Shown here: positions 25,594 to 64,000 of the stretch, piece by piece
Position numbering within the stretch: position 1 is the stretch's first letter
Layout of the letters: every line of letters starts with the position of its first letter
Source of the DNA: an uncultured delta proteobacterium
GTDB lineage: Bacteria; Myxococcota_A; Polyangia; Fen-1088
Length of the DNA stretch: 64,000 nucleotides
Reading direction: 5' to 3'
NCBI GenBank assembly: GCA_963737265.1
Contig: CAVTRY010000011.1
Location: 352,001 to 416,000, forward strand
The notes under the pieces: model-generated
Database searches by the model: none
Told to the model about the DNA's origin: nothing
What the model saw: the letters and a program-made list of their open reading frames with translations, nothing else
Position numbers and translations under genes: made by a program

Positions 25594-28500
25594 CTATTGC
25601 TTGCGCGCTCGGCGCCGGCCACGCCAGAACAGGGCGATGGCGCCCAGCGCGAGCGAAAAAGTCAACGTTGTCCCCAGTCCAGGGGCTGCTTGCCCGAGCG
25701 AACAACCGCAACCCGAATTGCGCAGGTGCGTGGCCCCGCCAGTACCCGTCGAGGTGCCCGCTAGCGTACCCCCCGAGCCACCGGTCGGAATACCTCCCAA
25801 TCCGCCACCCGCGCCGCCCTTTCCACCGCCGACTCCGCCGGTGGCATAGGCGCCACCAGCAGCATGGGTGCTGCCGCCAGTGACGACCCATGTGGTGCCG
25901 CCAGAGGCGATGAAGGTGGTTCCGCCCACAACATAAGTGGTGCCGGTGATATTGGTGCCGCCAGTGGGATAGACATAGCCGCCAGTGGGATAGACATAGC
26001 CGCCAGTGGGATAGACATAGCCGCCAGTGGGATAGACATAGCCGCCAGTGGGATAGACATAGCCGCCAGTGGGATAGACATAGCCACCGCTGCCGCCCGT
26101 ATTGCAGTAAGGGCTGTATCCGGAAACAAAGCACGTGCCCATTCCGTCGCACACCGAGCACCCTCCGCACGAGCTTCCGTAGGCAGGGTAGGCGCACGCG
26201 CCGACGCCGTCACAAGTGGCGCCGCAAACTCCAGTGCTTAGGCCGCATTCCTTCTCCGGATCGGTGCCGGCCTTGTAGGCCGAGCATCTGCCGGCGAGGC
26301 CAGCCTGGTCGCACGACAGGCATTGTCCGTTGCAGGCGGTGTTGCAACACACGCCGTCCGCGCAGAAGCCCGACGCGCAGGTGCTGGCGCTCGTACAGGC
26401 CGTGCCGTTCATGGTCTTGCAGGCGCCCTTGCCGTCGCATGCCTGGCCGCTCGAACAGCTACCCGCAACTTCGGTGCCGGCCGCCGCCGCCACGCATGTC
26501 CCTTCTTGACCGCTGACGTTGCACGATTGGCAAGCCCCCGCGCAGGTCGCCGATCCGCAGCACACTCCCTCGACGCAATTGCCGGAGGCACACAGGGATG
26601 CGGAAGCGGACGAGCATCCCTCGCCATTGCCGAGGTTGGTAACCGAGTATTCCCAGGTCTCGTCGGTGCTAAGGCCATTGGTGTTGCCGCCGTACATGAC
26701 GACAACACCGCGGCCCTTGTCGAATGCCAAAGCGGCGTTGGCGCGCGACGAAGGAACGGTCGCGAGATTGCGCACGTACCAGGTCGGCCCCTTGGCATCC
26801 AGTTCCCAGGTCTCACGGCTGGCTGCGGACGAAATCACCGGATTGACGGCGTCGGTGTAGAAAACCTCCCGTCGTCGGACGGAGTCATAGGTCACATAAG
26901 CCGACGTGTTGTAGTCGAGATAGTCGCCCGAGTCACGCAACACCCAACCGGTCGAGGTGGGATCCCACTCCCAGAACGCACTGCCGCTGGTGCCGCCGAT
27001 GTAGGGGGGTAGTTTGCTCGTCGTCGTGCCATCGAACAGGAAAATCTTCTGTCTGCCTTCGTCGTACGCCATGATCGGGAACTCTCGGGTCGAAGGAGAG
27101 GACGAGGTGGCCGGTGGCGTTCGGTTTGTCCACGTGGACTTGGAACCATCCCACTCCCAGACATCGTTGCGCAGCGGATCTTGGTAGATGCCGGTGGTTG
27201 GGAAACCAGGGTAGCCATAAATCGAATTGTTCTGGGTCATGCCGCCGAACAGAAGGATCTTGTTTCGAGCGGTGTCCGTGACCATGCCGTGGCCGAACCT
27301 GGCATCTGGCATGATAGTCGGAAAGAGCTGCGTCCACTTGCGCGTCGTGGAATTCCATTCCCACGTGTCGCTGTAGACCGAGGCGGAATACGAGCTGTAG
27401 ATATTTTGGCCGCCGAACAGAATAAGAGACTTGCGTGCTGGATCGTAGGCAAGGCCGGCGTCCATGCGGGCAGGCGGTTTTGCGTCGGCCGTGACCTCGG
27501 ACCACTTGGTGCCGTCCCACTCCCACAAATTGTCGTGAACGACGTACGTGTTGTCGAGGCCGCCGAATAGATAGACCTTGCCGGTGTCGGGGCAATAGGC
27601 CATGGCGTGATCGGTAAGACGGCCGGGCGAATTGAGCGCAGCCGAGCGATTGGTGAAGGCAGGCGTGACGGGCTCGAGCTCCCATACCTCTTTCGAGGCG
27701 ACGTTGGTGTAATAGCCGCCCGGGCCGACGATGATCGGGGGAAGAATCGGCAGGTAGGTGACAGCGCCGCCAGCGCCGCCGTAGTAATAGCCGCCCGTGC
27801 CGTAGCCGCCGAAGTACGTCGTGGAATTGACCATCCCTGCCACCAATTCCAATCGTCCAGCGCTGTCGTTCGAAACCAGCGAGGCATAGATGCGCGGGCT
27901 GGGCAGGTTGGCCTCGGTGCCGGTCAGCCTCTGCGTCCACGCCGCGGTCGTGGGATCCCAATCCCACAAATCGTCGAGGTAGCCGCCGGTGTTGACGTCC
28001 CAACCGCCAAACACGACCAACTTGCCGCGACTACCTTCGAAGGCGGCGGCCTGGCCCCAGCGCGGGCTCGGCTTGGTGCCGGTCGCTGTCCGCTCATTCC
28101 ACGTCCCCGCCGCGGGATCCCATTCCCACGTGTCTTGCTTGGGAATTCCGTCGACAGTTGCGTCGTCCTTTTGCATGCCGCCAAAGAGCACGGCGAGATT
28201 CCGCGTGCTGTCCCACACCATGGAGGCGTCGTATCGCCCGGCCGGGCCAGCGGTCACTGTTTGCTGCGACCACGCGCCGGTCGTGGCGTCCCATTCCCAC
28301 GTGTCGCCGAAGGAAAGCGACATGCTAAGCCCGGAGGTGTCGCCGTTGGTGCTGCGACCGCCGCCGAAAAGCAGAACCTTGCCCGTGCTCTTCTCAAAGA
28401 CCATGCTGCCCTGGCAACGTGAGCTCGGTACCGTGCCGGCGGTGGTCCGATCCGTCCACGCTCCGGTCGTGGGATCCCACTCCCAGGTGTCCTGATAGTT

Positions 28501-42736: not shown

Positions 42737-42803
42737 CCTAGCCGGCCGCGCGAAGCGCGGGGGGCAGGGCGTGTTGGTGGGTGCCGAGTGCCGAGGGCGA
42801 AGC

Positions 42804-42982
42804 GAACCCTCTTAGGGTTCCCATGAGTCGCGTGGTTCGCAGCGAGCTTTGCTCGCTGTGAACCATCGCGGGAGGGTTTGGGAACCCTTTTAGGGTTCCC
42901 ATGAGTCGCGTGGTTCGCAGCGAGCTTTGCTCGCTGTGAACCATCGCGGGAGGGTTTGGGAACCCTTTTAGGGTTCCCATGA
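42804..42982. repeat. 78-bp double-hairpin REP-like element, about 2.3 tandem copies
   Basis: tagggttccc recurs at 42813, 42891 and 42969; hairpins gggaaccct-ttt-agggttccc and tggttcgcagcgagc-ttt-gctcgctgtgaacca. Confidence 0.92.
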
Positions 42983-58575: not shown

Positions 58576-59432
58576 CTACTTGGAATGCCGTGGCCCGAAG
58601 AAGCGATCACCGTTGTAGTGAAGGAGGTGATCAGGAAACTCTGCAACCCATACCTCGGTTTCCCAGGCGATCTCGTCAGCATACCTTTTGAATTCGCGGA
58701 ACGATGGGAACGCCGAGACGTACACCCGACCCGGTGCCAATTGCGATCTTCATCGTAGAGCACGACATCTGGAAGCTTGTCGTGCTTGGTAACTGGCACG
58801 CCGAGTGCGGTGAGTTGGGTCTCGACGATCAGCTTGGTCTTGTGATCTGTGTCGCCGAGATAGAGAACAATGGTGTTTGCGGCGAATCGAGGCAGGAAAG
58901 TCTGGATGATTTCGGCCTGCAGCAAGTTGTGCACGCCTGGCGACAATTCAAGCGACGTGCCTCCGGGGAGAGATACGGCAACCGCGGCCTGTTTTCTCGC
59001 GCGCCCATACAGCTCCGCAAGCCCACCTTTTTGCGCAGTCAAGAATCGACGAACGGCAGTTTCAAATCCCTTCGCCCCGAATGTGCGAATGACTTCGAGG
59101 GCCTCCGGAGTAAGTGCGTAGTGCGTTCGTGGTGAGTTCGTAGCCAGGTTCGGATCGTCGGGGTTGCGTGCCAGGATGCCTCCTTGCACGAATTGGTGAA
59201 TCGCCTGGCGACGAATCGTCTCCCGCGTATTCTCCGCGTAGATCTTATGATAGTTGTCCCTGGCGAATGCAATCACATCGTGCGGCGTTCGGCGCGGATT
59301 ACTCGCCTTGCCCCATGGTGTTCTCGGCCCGATATTTGCGAACGCAAGCAAGGTATAGACAGCGTTTGGGTTCTGCTGCTCCGTCGGCATGCCGAATGCT
59401 GCGAGTATATCCTTGGCGTCATCAGGCTTCAC
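58576..59432 (-). pseudogene. BsuBI/PstI-family type II restriction endonuclease with internal deletion and frameshift
   Basis: YAENTRETIRRQAIHQF, LSPGVHN, LYLGDT, HDKLPDVVLY; after DRNW the C-terminus (VYVSAF..IAWETEVW..HYNGDRFFGP, stop 58576) is in another frame; no EAVTSHGP-like segment present. Confidence 0.82.
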
Positions 59433-60945
59433 CAAGCACCCCACTCGCCGCAGTGTCTGCCGATTGTCCACCAGCCACACGTGTCGCGATAGCGTCGAGA
59501 ATAGGCCCGGGTGGCAATGGCAAAGCGCGGAGTTCAGTGGCACTCACCTGCGTGTTGCCGCTTGAAATCCGAAAGTAGGAATCGATGAGATCCGAGTTGA
59601 GAAGAGCGGCGAGTCCGATGGCCTCCGAGGTCGAGAGCTCGCCGCCTGGACGATGGATGAAGTTCACATGATTTTCGAGGCCGATCATGTCAGTCGGGAG
59701 ACACCCAGCAAGGTACGGCCCTGCGACCAGCCGGCGTGCATCTTCCTTGGCTGAGAAGCGACGAATGAGCACGTAGGTGCGGTTTGCAACTAGGAGCTTT
59801 GGGCCTGCGCCGCGCTCTATGTGTTCGGGCTTCCGAAATCCACCGGCGAGGGGCCATCTGACAACGCCCGGGAGCACGTGTTGAAGCCACAGCAGCGGCA
59901 CCGTACTGGCGGATGGCGCCTCACGAAGGAATTCCTCCGCGCGAAAGGGCACGACGGGGCCTGTCGATACTTCGAGTTTCATAGTGGCCAAGGTTCCAGC
60001 CCACCCTTCGACCATGTCCATGACTCGAAGATCGCGGCGATTGGATGGCAAGAACACGGACGAATCACGTTCTTCCGCAATCACGCGACCGCGCGGGACA
60101 ACGCTGATCGCTCGCTCTGCAAGGTCGGATTCCCCCTGGGACGACGAGATCGTCACCGACGGATTCGGCAGATCGGTCTTCCTGTACATCACGATGATGT
60201 TCTCTTGGAGCACGCCGTCGTTACGAAAAGCGTCGGTCCGAGACTCGAATACGTGAACGTGATCGAGGCGAGCGACGGAATGGAGACGTCGCCGGAAGCG
60301 TTTGAAGTAGTAACCGGACGAGAAGCTCCTCGGAATGATGAAGCAAATTTGTCCGCCACCCGTAAGCATCCTAATCGCAACATCGACAAAGCGTGCGTAG
60401 GCGTTTGGTGCGTCACCACCAGAATCATCAGTTGGCGACATCTTGAAGTACGGCGGGTTTCCGATGGCGTAGTCGAAGCTCGGCAGTGGCCTTGTGCCAA
60501 GTCTAGGGCGATCAAGTTCGAGAAAATCGTCCTCGACAACGCTGTACTGAAGGCGTTCTCCCCAAGTTTGCTGTGCGGCTGCCAACGATTCGCGGAGAAT
60601 TCGAGCGGCACCTGGTTCCTTCTCGACCGCGGTGAGATGAACTCGGCCGGGGCACCGGCGAAGCAGATCGTTGACCGCGGCGATTCCGAGAACCCCCGTT
60701 CCGGCCCCGGGATCAAGAATGCGCACGCATTCGCCACGGGGAGCATCGAAGAGGGACGCCATGAATGCCGCAATCTTGGGACTCGTAAAGAACTGCCCCC
60801 ACGATTTCTTGTGTGCATCACCCGTGTCGCTGCGATAGCCGGCGGACAGAGCTGCTACATTGTCGAATATCTCACCCGTGTGCAATTCGCCCTCGATGAG
60901 GCTGGCGAAAGGGGACGAATGAAGACCTGAATGTCTCATGTTCAC
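59422..60945 (-). CDS. N6-adenine DNA methyltransferase (BsuBI/PstI, Eco57I-like gamma class)
   Basis: GQFFTS, DPGAGTG, GNPPY, IIPRSFSSGYYF, VLQENII, STGPVVPFR, GNTQVSATEL; overlaps the endonuclease start. Confidence 0.9.
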   Translation of the reverse strand: MNMRHSGLHSSPFASLIEGELHTGEIFDNVAALSAGYRSDTGDAHKKSWGQFFTSPKIAAFMASLFDAPRGECVRILDPGAGTGVLGIAAVNDLLRRCPGRVHLTAVEKEPGAARILRESLAAAQQTWGERLQYSVVEDDFLELDRPRLGTRPLPSFDYAIGNPPYFKMSPTDDSGGDAPNAYARFVDVAIRMLTGGGQICFIIPRSFSSGYYFKRFRRRLHSVARLDHVHVFESRTDAFRNDGVLQENIIVMYRKTDLPNPSVTISSSQGESDLAERAISVVPRGRVIAEERDSSVFLPSNRRDLRVMDMVEGWAGTLATMKLEVSTGPVVPFRAEEFLREAPSASTVPLLWLQHVLPGVVRWPLAGGFRKPEHIERGAGPKLLVANRTYVLIRRFSAKEDARRLVAGPYLAGCLPTDMIGLENHVNFIHRPGGELSTSEAIGLAALLNSDLIDSYFRISSGNTQVSATELRALPLPPGPILDAIATRVAGGQSADTAASGVLGEA

Positions 60946-60990
60946 TCTGATGGAGGATGGCCGATAACGGATTGTGTGTAAACCGGCTTC

Positions 60991-61018
60991 GCGAAATTCG
61001 ATGAGCGAAATTCGATGA
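60991..61018. repeat. 14-bp perfect direct repeat x2 upstream of the type II methyltransferase
   Basis: gcgaaattcgatga gcgaaattcgatga. Confidence 0.8.
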
Positions 61019-61032
61019 TAAGAACGGAAATA

Positions 61033-62121
61033 TCAGAAAACCATGGTGAGGAAGCTGTCGAGGCCCTGGCGCCAGGTGTCCTTGTAGGCCAGCACCTCGA
61101 CCAGCGAGGGCTCTTTCTTCACCTGCACCGTAACCTCGTCGCCGCCGTCTCGCGTGGGGAGCCGGCCGGCTTCGCCGGCCGCGGACCTTCGCGGGAGGGT
61201 TTGGGAACCCTCCGAGGGTTCCCATGTCAGATCAATATCGACGGTGTTGTCGGCGCGGAAGTCGTTGTTCACCATGAAGGGCGGGTCGATGTAGACGAGG
61301 TCGACCTTGCCCCGGTAGCGCCAGTCGCGCGTGCCAGGATCCTTCTCGTCGAGCAGGGTCTGGAGCGCGACCAAGTTGTCATTGGTCCAGATGAGGCGAT
61401 TCGGCGGCAACGTGGTCACGTCGCGCGCCTCCGCCGTGCGGATCTCCAGCCCCGCCAACTCGCCCCGATCCATGGCCCGCCCCGGCCGCACGATCTCCAC
61501 CACCTGCGTTGGCACCGAGGCCGCCATCTCCTTGCGCCACATGCCCTGCCAAGCCAGCCGCGGCTTTCGCGGAGTAACATCCAACGTGATTTCCAGCCCC
61601 GCGCCCTCGCTCGCCGTCGCGTCCACATCGGTCGTGTTCGGCACCGGCAAGGACGGCGTGCGCACCGAGCGCGTGACCGGCGGTGGCGTCGGCTCCAGCA
61701 GCGGGAACCCCTGCCAAGCAAGCTGCGTCTGGGCCGGCGCGGGCGGCGCGGGCGCCGCAGGTGGCGCGACCTTGGCGGCCTCTTCCTTGCGCACCTTCTT
61801 CACCTTGGGCTCCGGCGTTTCGTTGTCCCCGTCGCCGTCATCGTCGTCTCGCCCGCGCTCCGCCGCCAGAATCCGATCCACCAGCACCTGCTTCTCGCGC
61901 CCCTCGGCCGAGATGCCCACCGCAAAGCAAACCGACTTCAGCGTGTCGCGCGCGAGCAGTTCCAGAATCTTCTCCAGAATCCCCCGCTTCTTGCTGCCCG
62001 CCACCACGTCCATCATCTCGTCGAGCCGCATGCCGCTGGTCACGCCAAGATCGAGCGTCTTGCCGACTTCCAACAACTCCGCCCGCGTGAGCGCCCCGAG
62101 CGCCTTGCGTTTGAAGGCCAT
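61033..62121 (-). pseudogene. Type III-like Mod (beta-class) DNA methyltransferase, 3'-truncated
   Basis: KPRLAWQG, NRLIWTNDNL, GKVDLVYIDPPF, AYKDTW..GLDSFL then stop; no SAM-binding FxGSG motif. Confidence 0.82.
61150..61227. repeat. 78-bp double-hairpin element in frame inside mod
   Basis: tcgcgtgg...tcgcgggagggtttgggaaccct-ccg-agggttcccatg, homologous to unit 42828-42905; encodes TWEPSEGSQTLPRRSAAGEAGRLPTR. Confidence 0.85.
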
Positions 62122-62201
62122 GGCCCGGCATCGTACACGACGCAGGAGCCCCGGAATAGTGCGAGCGCGGCTATGCGGAGGCCCGATCCTTCTGGCGAGG
62201 T

Positions 62202-62729
62202 CTAGCGCGGTTCGCGGGCGAGCCGTCGCTTCTTGAAAGTCTCGTCGAAGGTCGTGTAGTCGTTCGGCCGCCCTTGAACCTGGCGCTTGTCGTCCCAGAT
62301 CGAGGCTTTCTCGCGCGCCTCTTCGAGTGAAACCTCGCCACTCTCCACAGCCTCCACCATCAAATCCATGATGTCACCCGCGGGGACGCCGTTGTCCTTG
62401 GCACAAGCACGAGCGCGCTTGTCGATGGAAACGAATAGAGGGCGTTGCTCTTGTGGCAACTGCATCGCCCATGCAACCGCCTCGGCCTCGCCCTTGTCGT
62501 GGCCCTTCTGTTTGAGGTCGCGAAGATTCGCGTCTCTGGCAGAGAGATCGTGAATGCGCAGACGTTCGGTCTTGCAAAAGGCATCTACGTCCACCGCTAC
62601 CGTCGAAAGTTCGTGCCTGGCGATGTATCCCGTCATCAGCCACGAACCCTTTCCAGAGGCCAATGAGCGCAGGAAGGACAGCTTGCGAATGCAGAGGAAT
62701 GCGTCGGCGTCGAAAAGAACGTCCCTCAC
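62202..62729 (-). CDS. PIN-domain-like protein
   Basis: VLFDADAF, IARHEL, DKGEAEAVA, FVSIDKRAR acidic pattern; GTG overlaps the upstream stop. Confidence 0.72.
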   Translation of the reverse strand: MRDVLFDADAFLCIRKLSFLRSLASGKGSWLMTGYIARHELSTVAVDVDAFCKTERLRIHDLSARDANLRDLKQKGHDKGEAEAVAWAMQLPQEQRPLFVSIDKRARACAKDNGVPAGDIMDLMVEAVESGEVSLEEAREKASIWDDKRQVQGRPNDYTTFDETFKKRRLAREPR

Positions 62730-63928
62730 GCGACCGTCACGGACAGGTCTTCCGATGGAAGGTTCAGGGCGAAGAAGTCGAGAACGCTTTCCAGGTCGGC
62801 GGCGGGGGTAATGCCCAAGGCATCGGCAAACTGGTCGCGCCGAATTCGCCCGGCCGAATAGAGGCGAGCCGCAACGCGCGCGACCTCGGTTCGGCGTTCG
62901 GGTTTCACCTCGTCGAGCGGGAAGCCGTCGATTCCGGTTGGCTCTTCGTGGGTAACCCACCGGGCCTCTGTTCCCAAAACAGTGAAAGCCGGACCTGGAT
63001 TCTCTGGCAGCTCGACCTGGCCTTCATTCCGAAGGTACAAGCGGATCGCGCCGTAGGGCAGTCCGTAGCTCGCCAGGGCTCGGGCGGTTTCGGGGTTGGA
63101 AAGGGTGGCGTCTTTTGCGACCAATCCCTGGATGATCTTCTGCGGGCAGATGAGGCGTACCGCAAACGCATTCGCACGCTGCTCGACTTCGAGTTGCTTG
63201 TCGTTGAGATAGCCGGAGATCGTCGCGACCGGCTCAAGCCGGTTCCAGTCAGGAAGCAGGTGACAGAGTTCGTGCGCAAGGCTGAACCTTCGGACACACG
63301 GGTTCTTGTTCTTTCCTTCGAGGTTCAAGACGATAGTCGGCCCGCGAAGATGATCGAGGAAGGTCAGTCCGGCTGGACCAGCTCCGCCCAACTCGGCATA
63401 GAGCACGGAGATCGAAGGGAATCGCTCGGCAACGAAATCGCGCATGGACAAGATGGGCGCATCGTGGAGCTTGAGCTTGCTTCGGAGATCGGCGGCGCAT
63501 TTCGCTCCCTGTTGGTAAGGCAGCCGTCCCTTGATAGCTTCAAGCCCTGGTGTCTCTTTCCTGAACTTCTCGCGCCCGTCCTCGTTGGTTTCCAGATGGC
63601 GCAGACTGGCGAGGTCGCGCGCGGCATTTGCTGCGGCCACAACGCGTACACGGGTCATGTCGTCAAGAGCATGGAATTCGTCGAGACTCGCCAGCGTGAC
63701 CACACCGTCCCCCTTGGCTAGTTGAATCGGCTCATCGGCAAGCCGGTCAGCGTCGATCCCATAAATGCGCGAAAGCGCGTCGGCCTCGAAGACCGTCGGA
63801 GCGTCGCCATGCTCTTCGATGCGCGCAAGGCGTTCGACCGAAACATGGGACATTCTGGCGGCAGCCTCTCTGGTGTAACCCAGTAGCCTCTCGCGAACGT
63901 CCCTGAGATTCTCGACTTTGGTGGTCAA
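62726..63928 (-). CDS. XRE-HTH fused to ImmA/IrrE-family metallopeptidase
   Basis: N-terminal HTH (LRDVRERLLGYTREAAA..LARIEE), RRFSLAHELCHLL, EQRANAFAVRLICP. Confidence 0.9.
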   Translation of the reverse strand: MTTKVENLRDVRERLLGYTREAAARMSHVSVERLARIEEHGDAPTVFEADALSRIYGIDADRLADEPIQLAKGDGVVTLASLDEFHALDDMTRVRVVAAANAARDLASLRHLETNEDGREKFRKETPGLEAIKGRLPYQQGAKCAADLRSKLKLHDAPILSMRDFVAERFPSISVLYAELGGAGPAGLTFLDHLRGPTIVLNLEGKNKNPCVRRFSLAHELCHLLPDWNRLEPVATISGYLNDKQLEVEQRANAFAVRLICPQKIIQGLVAKDATLSNPETARALASYGLPYGAIRLYLRNEGQVELPENPGPAFTVLGTEARWVTHEEPTGIDGFPLDEVKPERRTEVARVAARLYSAGRIRRDQFADALGITPAADLESVLDFFALNLPSEDLSVTVA

Positions 63929-64000
63929 GGGGAAAGCACCTGCTCCTAGTATCGGATCGGAAGTCCCGTCAAGGCCCTGAAATTTCGGGGTGAAGGCGAG

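Follow-up and report, generated by a model that had tools for sequence, protein, structure and literature searches.

A palindromic insert in a truncated methylase gene

How does a palindromic segment of 78 nucleotides, of a kind that also forms a tandem repeat between genes, come to lie in frame within a DNA methylase gene, and does it add a peptide loop to the protein that carries it? The question arises in a stretch of 64,000 nucleotides from an uncultured delta proteobacterium of the Polyangia, hereafter the window, which is part of contig C11 of the genome G000 (assembly 99.5% complete, 25 contigs). An earlier reading, made from the letters alone (the sequence-only reading), had paired positions 61150-61227 with the tandem unit at 42804-42982 on account of a common tcgcgtgg and tcgcgggagggtttgggaaccct...agggttccc, and the two stretches do read so. 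As it had also stated, the gggaaccct/agggttccc stem is identical in both and its loops differ, the other stem differs in sequence yet pairs, and the 78 nt make up 26 open codons of the minus-strand ORF at 61033-62121.

The hairpin pattern GGGAACCCTNNNAGGGTTCCC matched four places in the window at up to two mismatches, against 0.00 expected from 100 shuffles, and the same hairpin, written as GGGAACCCT-nnn-AGGGTTCCC, was found at 25 sites of the 6.55-Mb genome at up to one mismatch, the reversed control giving 0. Folded as single-stranded DNA, the copy in the methylase gene reached z = -4.7 on one strand and -4.2 on the other, and the intergenic unit reached z = -10.3; in both cases, 0 of 200 shuffles folded as well. 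The covariance model of the family, here named R1, scored the methylase-gene copy at 91.4 bits over its full length at C11:413146-413227 (window 61146-61227), the forward orientation of the family being on the minus strand. Alignment with the empty site of an orthologue in the genome G010 placed the whole insertion at 61148-61228 (81 nt, boundaries +/-2 nt), such that the 78 nt of the sequence-only reading stand as its core and not as its full length. Hairpin 1, the part of the family that is conserved in sequence, lies at 61202-61224 and has a 10-bp stem, TGGGAACCCT/AGGGTTCCCA, with a 3-nt loop. Hairpin 2, at 61151-61193, is closed by CGCG/CGCG and contains an 8-bp core stem (61163-61181) with a GAA loop. 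The intergenic array sits between two genes of the same direction and consists of two full units on the minus strand at 42824-42982, with a period of 78 and 93.2 bits each (C11:394824-394904 and C11:394902-394982), next to a partial third unit at 42802-42822 that retains hairpin 1 only, with one mismatch; Tandem Repeats Finder reported a period of 78, 2.3 copies, and 99% matches over 42804-42982.

Do the residues encoded by the insert belong to the methylase? A phmmer search of 1.84 billion representative sequences gave 420 matches, and most of the top ones aligned in two parts, interrupted at query residue 101-107. Ten of the 12 aligned homologues, namely all those that run through the site, do without the 26-27 residues that separate DIDL from DGGDE, whereas the remaining two, P0026 and P0035, diverge at the site and have no element peptide. 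The G010 orthologue, with 98% protein and about 95% DNA identity, has a 1013-aa open frame with a complete PF01555 domain and, at the site, has GACCT|CGGCGG against GATCT[81 nt]CGGCGG in the window; a separate 3-nt indel is located about 14 nt downstream of the insert. An empty site at 98% identity indicates that 61148-61228 is the insertion and that it is recent. The sequence-only reading had named the absence of the peptide from homologues as a check, and the outcome supports it. The opposite possibility, that the methylase has these residues as a loop of its own, specific to the lineage, which resembles the repeat by chance, can draw on the open frame and on nothing else; it is refuted by the homologues and by the G010 orthologue that do without the residues, disagrees with the 91.4 bits that the DNA scores against the R1 model, and has in our estimate a vanishing probability.

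The same pair of genes holds a second event. At 61590-61598 (minus strand) of the window, the blastn alignment breaks where G010 has 89 nt, a net difference of 81 nt, and this stretch of G010 contains its own R1 copy in the opposite orientation (68.4 bits at L207:1352-1432). Each genome is filled where the other is empty, and hence two independent in-frame insertions occurred in sister genes.

The host of the window copy is, however, not a working gene. The ORF at 61033-62121 on the minus strand encodes a 362-aa 5' remnant of a SAP-domain and N6/N4 DNA methyltransferase gene (mod in the sequence-only reading), with a SAP-like N-terminus, a linker, and the start of the methylase, and it ends about 70 aa past the DPPF motif in ...DSFLTMVF*. 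Full-length homologues have 670-905 aa, and most of the PF01555 methylase domain is missing from the remnant; the Pfam scan of the ORF gave no match and the PDB sequence search with the methylase fragment nothing at E <= 1. Similarity to the G010 DNA ends at position 61042, the absent 3' part, which in the G010 gene comprises more than 420 codons, was not found elsewhere in the 99.5%-complete assembly, and its place is taken by an Eco57I-type N6 methylase gene at 59422-60945 on the minus strand (PF07669, PF02384). Judged from its sequence, the methylase gene of the window is a dead 5' remnant in which R1 landed after the split from the G010 orthologue. Since the methylase is truncated, no working protein gains a loop at this site.

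In the low-GC gap between the remnant and the Eco57I-type gene, there is a perfect 14-bp tandem (GCGAAATTCGATGA x2) at 60991-61018, possibly the junction left when the methylase gene lost its 3' part. The neighbourhood, 59422-64000 and C11:416956-420528, resembles a defence island that comprises the Eco57I-type methylase, the remnant, a gene for an HTH and ImmA/IrrE peptidase protein (62726-63928), and, just beyond the window, a helicase of the SNF2/DUF3670 type; C11:420301-420528 contains a second SAP-like stretch. Elsewhere in the window, 25957-26085 is made up of 6.1 copies (100% matches) of a 21-bp unit, GCCGCCAGTGGGATAGACATA, with weaker 21- and 24-bp repeats nearby.

The R1 family and its conserved pairing

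A profile built with nhmmer from the seed copies gave 65 matches in the genome, and 25 distinct copies were aligned. Their forward consensus is ATGGGAACCCT-nnn-AGGGTTCCCAaACCCTCCCGCGa...[stem]-AAA-[stem']...CCCACGCGA, which corresponds to a conserved hairpin (ATGGGAACCCT-nnn-AGGGTTCCCAt), a conserved linker (AACCCTCCC), and the longer, CGCG-closed hairpin 2, whose stem varies in sequence, being different in almost every subfamily, and keeps its pairing. For the 25 copies, RNAalifold predicted 22 pairs, 12 of which show changes on both sides. Paired cells amounted to 96.5%, compared with 84.7 +/- 0.9 in shuffles, and none of 500 shuffles reached the observed value; cells changed on both sides numbered 62, against 17.1 in shuffles, and pairing fell to 30-47% when the partners were slid by 1-3 columns. 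Helix 1, in hairpin 1, is paired in 97.8% of cells over the 25 copies with both-side changes in four of nine pairs, and helix 4, in hairpin 2, in 95.4% with both-side changes in five of seven. Hairpin 1 is conserved in sequence and covaries too, as seen in the forms GGGAACCC, GGAAACCC, and AGGAACCC, and in ATGG..CCAT against ACGG..CCGT.

In the genome of the window, the covariance model found 74 matches; once overlaps are removed, 62 copies remain, spread over 42 loci, of which several are head-to-tail arrays of 2-7 units and only one mixes orientations. Both the scan and the covariation thus bear out the proposal of a dispersed family selected for structure. A comparison of five element-rich loci with Rfam returned no family match, only tRNAs and sub-threshold noise. 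The explanation that, taken whole, we consider best, and probably correct, is that R1 is a dispersed, non-autonomous repeat family of about 81 nt under selection for pairing.

Copies inside intact genes

The array periods are mostly 81, 84, or 78. Forward frames 1 and 2 and reverse frame 2 are each free of stops in 35 of 44 anchored copies (80%), and the other three frames in 14-28 of the 44. With unit lengths that are multiples of three and three mostly stop-free frames, many insertions into genes keep the frame; the bias toward such lengths is suggestive rather than a test, because subfamilies share unit length by descent. In-gene inserts would then survive as an extra 27-28 residues rich in Pro, Gly, Arg, Ser, and Ala. 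Open frames spanning R1 loci were scanned with Pfam and compared with orthologues, and five of the 42 loci proved to be in frame in coding sequence, one of these being the methylase remnant; three others belong to a single disruptive event and four are uncertain. Some sites taken as empty could be precise losses or could belong to outgroup lineages.

In an M16 peptidase gene (C12:156742), the insert interrupts FLLD|RPSF within the catalytic-type domain and leaves the HxxEH motif intact. This site is empty in nine genomes (G010, G006, G011, G002, G003, G005, G007, G012, and G014), has one unit in G000 and G008, a variant unit in G004, and both kinds in tandem in G009, and every orthologue has an open frame. 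The AlphaFold2 model of the M16 domain with its insert, from a 12-row alignment, had a mean pLDDT of 38.1 and a pTM of 0.34 and was unusable for placing the loop. The variant element (L051:1463-1562 in G004, L052:1464-1563 in G009) has a longer GC-rich palindrome with a GGGTGGGGGCCCCCACCC core in place of hairpin 1, an unchanged hairpin 2, and the same M16 site as the standard unit.

In hflX (C14:157046), the site lies between roughly 200 conserved N-terminal residues and the Pfam GTP-bdg_N domain. G010, G005, G007, G011, and G012 have no unit there, decayed remnants are present in G008, G002, and G006, and the filled sites, with a period of 81 or 84, hold two units in G000 and G003, three in G004, and five in G001. 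Just past the end of the window, an SNF2 helicase gene (C11:419401-419522) carries one copy in G000 and in both of the G004 copies of the gene, and the site is empty in G010, G002, G008, G006, and G025; the upstream sequence is conserved, yet it contains stop codons in G010 and G002. For a DUF222-HNH gene, the support is a single Pfam match that spans the R1 insert. The disruptive event concerns a gene for a 307-aa HUH-like protein, where R1 brings a stop codon in three copies on C16; the paralogues on C23 and C22 are empty.

Copies within genes occur in both orientations and in at least two frames each way. From the open frames and the conserved sequence on both flanks, the inserts are probably translated. 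The claim that the element can add peptide loops to proteins accordingly has two outcomes: it fails for the window copy, whose host is the 362-aa remnant, and it is supported for intact genes by the in-frame insertions counted in the M16 peptidase, hflX, and SNF2 helicase genes of G000, with a further one in the methylase gene of G010.

A glutamate-synthase-like gene with three units (C21:168630) was dropped as an intragenic case: the sequence upstream is only 53-64% conserved, contains a stop in G010, and has no coding signature in G001, and the array is probably, with some uncertainty, a 5' leader. Open frames over the copies at C11:1286941, C14:150846, and C16:36187 were left uncounted for want of support on both sides.

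Distribution of R1 and its position relative to genes

R1 is present in 12 of 12 congeners, in 22 of 24 genomes of the family f1, and in one of 16 genomes from other families of the class; G014 and G024, both of f1, gave 0 matches. The counts in relatives are lower bounds, with 112-150 candidates scored per genome. Many genomes have at least 112 matches and G001 at least 150. An exact-pattern scan with one genome per species found at least 123 stretches with the element, and the titles among the matches listed all refer to metagenome-assembled genomes (MAGs) of Polyangia, Myxococcales, Myxococcota, delta proteobacterium, or (Proteo)bacterium. From these titles, R1 belongs to an uncultured lineage of the Polyangia. 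The sole genome outside f1 with R1, G035, has at least 49 matches, for which horizontal spread or a misplaced bin is possible.

Contigs of public sequencing runs were also compared with the stretch. A few contigs, from X2, X3, and X15, skip the element, as would be expected of relatives whose site is empty, and hundreds match the element itself; these contigs come from mixed organisms and show neither expression nor within-species polymorphism. None of the public runs contained half of the words sampled from the stretch.

Could the repeat be retained because it serves the host, as a stabiliser of mRNA 3' ends, a terminator, or a protein-binding site, with the in-gene copies being incidental? 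Conserved pairing would be expected of such a signal, and hairpin 1, a 9-bp inverted repeat with a 3-nt spacer, has a shape that would suit a dimeric protein. Most copies also appear to be intergenic, since not one of the 20 largest G001 arrays is flanked on both sides by a coding signature. However, a structural signal does not predict presence and absence at orthologous sites within conserved genes, and it is difficult to reconcile with a copy number that ranges from 0 to more than 112 among the genomes of one family, with copies in both orientations relative to genes, with hairpins that no T run follows, and with the lack of an Rfam match. We therefore regard a host-serving signal as quite unlikely and retain the dispersed, non-autonomous repeat family as our reading of R1.

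At two loci, R1 arrays directly abut tRNA genes (L010:422-494 and L021:418-490). A CRISPR reading of the arrays was rejected, as the units are contiguous and near-identical and have no unique spacers.

Proposed mobilisation of R1

R1 was gained or lost at orthologous sites and has multiplied locally as near-identical head-to-tail units. New sites would be seeded by a trans-acting enzyme able to recognise the hairpins once folded, probably in single-stranded DNA, and the arrays would then grow or shrink through slippage or unequal recombination. The sequence around the insertions was analysed in other genomes, in 98-108 singletons. Of 108 singletons, 99 have AT immediately before hairpin 1, and 30 have a RATY motif whose first base is exactly 9 nt upstream of this hairpin, compared with 1-6 in control windows; at the M16 site, the RATY is native host sequence. 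The hflX target, ATAG|CCGCGTA, resembles the junction between units, AATAG|TCGCGTG, and the M16 insert has GATCG on both sides. The RATY flank, the likeness of the hflX target to the junction, and the GATCG at M16 are hints that fit an enzyme reading the hairpins together with a short flank.

Of what kind would this enzyme be? A miniature inverted-repeat element (MITE) moved by a DDE transposase, with terminal inverted repeats and a target duplication of fixed length, could have the size of about 80 nt and the copy number of R1, and one copy (L110) does have TCTAGAT on both sides. Among 98 singletons, however, no duplication of 3-6 nt rose above chance at any offset (best, 14 matches against 8.8 expected), the ends of the consensus, ATGGGAACC at 5' and TCGCGTGGG for the reverse-complemented 3' end, agree by inspection in no more than 3-4 bases, and a full-length parent element with a DDE transposase gene was not found. 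A DDE-type origin of R1 is thus very improbable.

The other candidate is a REP/REPIN-type element moved by a RAYT of the same genome, and here the genome itself offers some support, for it encodes a distant RAYT-like family of 307 aa with HUH-like and Tyr motifs by inspection. Its match to NCBIfam NF047646 has E = 2.4e-12 and 46.9 bits and spans profile positions 14-144 of 146; a single match to PF01797 (Y1_Tnp) has 20.9 bits. Both scores are, however, below the curated cut-offs of 80 and 23 bits, respectively, and a PDB search with the HUH protein gave chance-level matches only. The absence of target duplication and the position-specific RATY motif 9 nt upstream of hairpin 1 fit such an enzyme, and HUH genes are present in both genomes for which recent insertions are demonstrated, G000 and G010.

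The location of R1 argues against this candidate. No R1 match lies within 1.5 kb of either intact HUH gene (L003, L004), and the nearest R1 copies to the eight HUH matches are 30-129 kb away, except on C16, where R1 is inside the gene and breaks it. In G001, none of the three HUH matches listed is, by inspection, beside R1 copies among the at least 150 matches listed. Over 41 genomes, R1 and HUH genes do not co-occur, which is weak evidence where it relies on absences from MAGs: no HUH match at E <= 1e-5 was found in G012, G013, G009, and G015, with at least 111, 105, 79, and 79 R1 matches, respectively; G006 has five HUH matches and at least six R1 matches; and outside f1, 13 of the 14 genomes with HUH genes have no R1. 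A GTAG or CGTC tag is absent at either hairpin foot in the 25-copy consensus, the arrays run head to tail rather than as inverted doublets, and the orientation of R1 relative to local GC skew is near even (23 vs 19 loci), in a small test over 25 contigs with weak skew, which lends no positive support to ssDNA transposition either. The link to RAYT and HUH enzymes drawn by the sequence-only reading was therefore not upheld by flanking, co-occurrence, tag, or doublets, nor was a RAYT or IS200-like TnpA gene flanked by the element found where it was looked for, around the HUH genes. We consider a RAYT of the same genome unlikely as the mover of R1. Beside both intact 307-aa HUH genes, there is long low-complexity tandem DNA (L003:2109-3407; L004:452-1054 and 1900-2800) that is open in several frames, with GKTLAPPKR and KDPGTTQA motifs.

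A more far-reaching proposal is that the mover of R1 is neither RAYT nor DDE, that R1 evolved tolerance within genes through lengths that are multiples of three and stop-free frames, that conserved genes like hflX gain and lose 0 to 5 in-frame units between sister species, and that targets are chosen by likeness to the element's own junction (ATAG|YCGCGTR at hflX, GATCG at M16). As a whole, this proposal is speculative and rather unlikely; if true, R1 would be a bacterial generator of variable-length protein loops.

Relation to known elements

The elements closest to R1 in behaviour are the Rickettsia palindromic elements (RPEs), which, in the portions of the literature consulted, are palindromes found between genes and in frame in unrelated genes and have no dedicated transposase known. 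In-frame insertions of RPEs are summarised in the sections consulted of a 2024 review of MITEs (PMC10969869). R1 likewise entered unrelated open genes in frame, namely those of the M16 peptidase, hflX, the SNF2 helicase, and the G010 methylase. From the RPEs as described there, it is set apart by its host, Myxococcota (Polyangia) and not Rickettsia, by its length of about 81 nt against about 100-150, by a fixed build of two hairpins, one conserved and one covarying, and by its frequent head-to-tail arrays, including the in-frame arrays of 2-5 units in hflX.

The REP, BIME, and REPIN elements of E. coli and Pseudomonas resemble R1 in being short, structured, mostly extragenic repeats that number in the tens to hundreds and are grouped in arrays, without target duplication. 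Di Nocera et al. (2013; PMC3733652), in the parts consulted, describe REPs within genes of several species, as singles, dimers, and clusters, CGTC-tagged REPs without a dedicated transposase, and RPEs inserted in frame. As far as those parts go, the CGTC-tagged REPs share with R1 the intragenic units and the lack of a dedicated transposase, but they are single hairpins with 8-9-bp stems, and R1 has no CGTC tag. Compared with REP/RAYT systems in general, R1 has neither a GTAG/CGTC tag nor a flanking RAYT or co-occurrence with HUH genes, and compared with REPs and REPINs, it forms direct arrays instead of inverted doublets and has two hairpins per unit.

Palindrome-associated elements derived from IS200/IS605 have a hairpin at each end and neither inverted terminal repeats nor target duplication. 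R1 is like them in these respects, and the short position-specific motif on its 5' flank can be noted beside this likeness; unlike them, it has no parent element or associated TnpA that we could find, and its orientations number 23 vs 19 under weak skew. R1 acts like RPEs and REPs, yet it fits the definition of neither a REP/RAYT system nor a DDE-type MITE. A structured repeat family with no RAYT partner bears on the question of what moves such elements.

R1 is a new family of the REP/RPE-like kind, whose behaviour as such is already known. The suggestion that it was undescribed in its lineage agrees with the full-text literature on Myxococcota, subscription-only papers being outside its scope, in which no description of such an element was found. 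The family carries the reading of palindromes as protein beyond Rickettsia and a handful of REP-rich species into a free-living soil lineage with large genomes, and it provides clean natural experiments in one hflX (GTPase) site with 0, 2, 3, or 5 units in sister species and in an M16 peptidase domain with 0, 1, or 2 units.

R1 repeats also inflate and distort gene calls in MAGs, as in the database proteins P0049 and P0066, which matched our query and are reading frames over long R1 arrays. Another database protein, P0112, is a PMT-family glycosyltransferase with two R1 units near its C-terminus, read in the same frame as the window copy.
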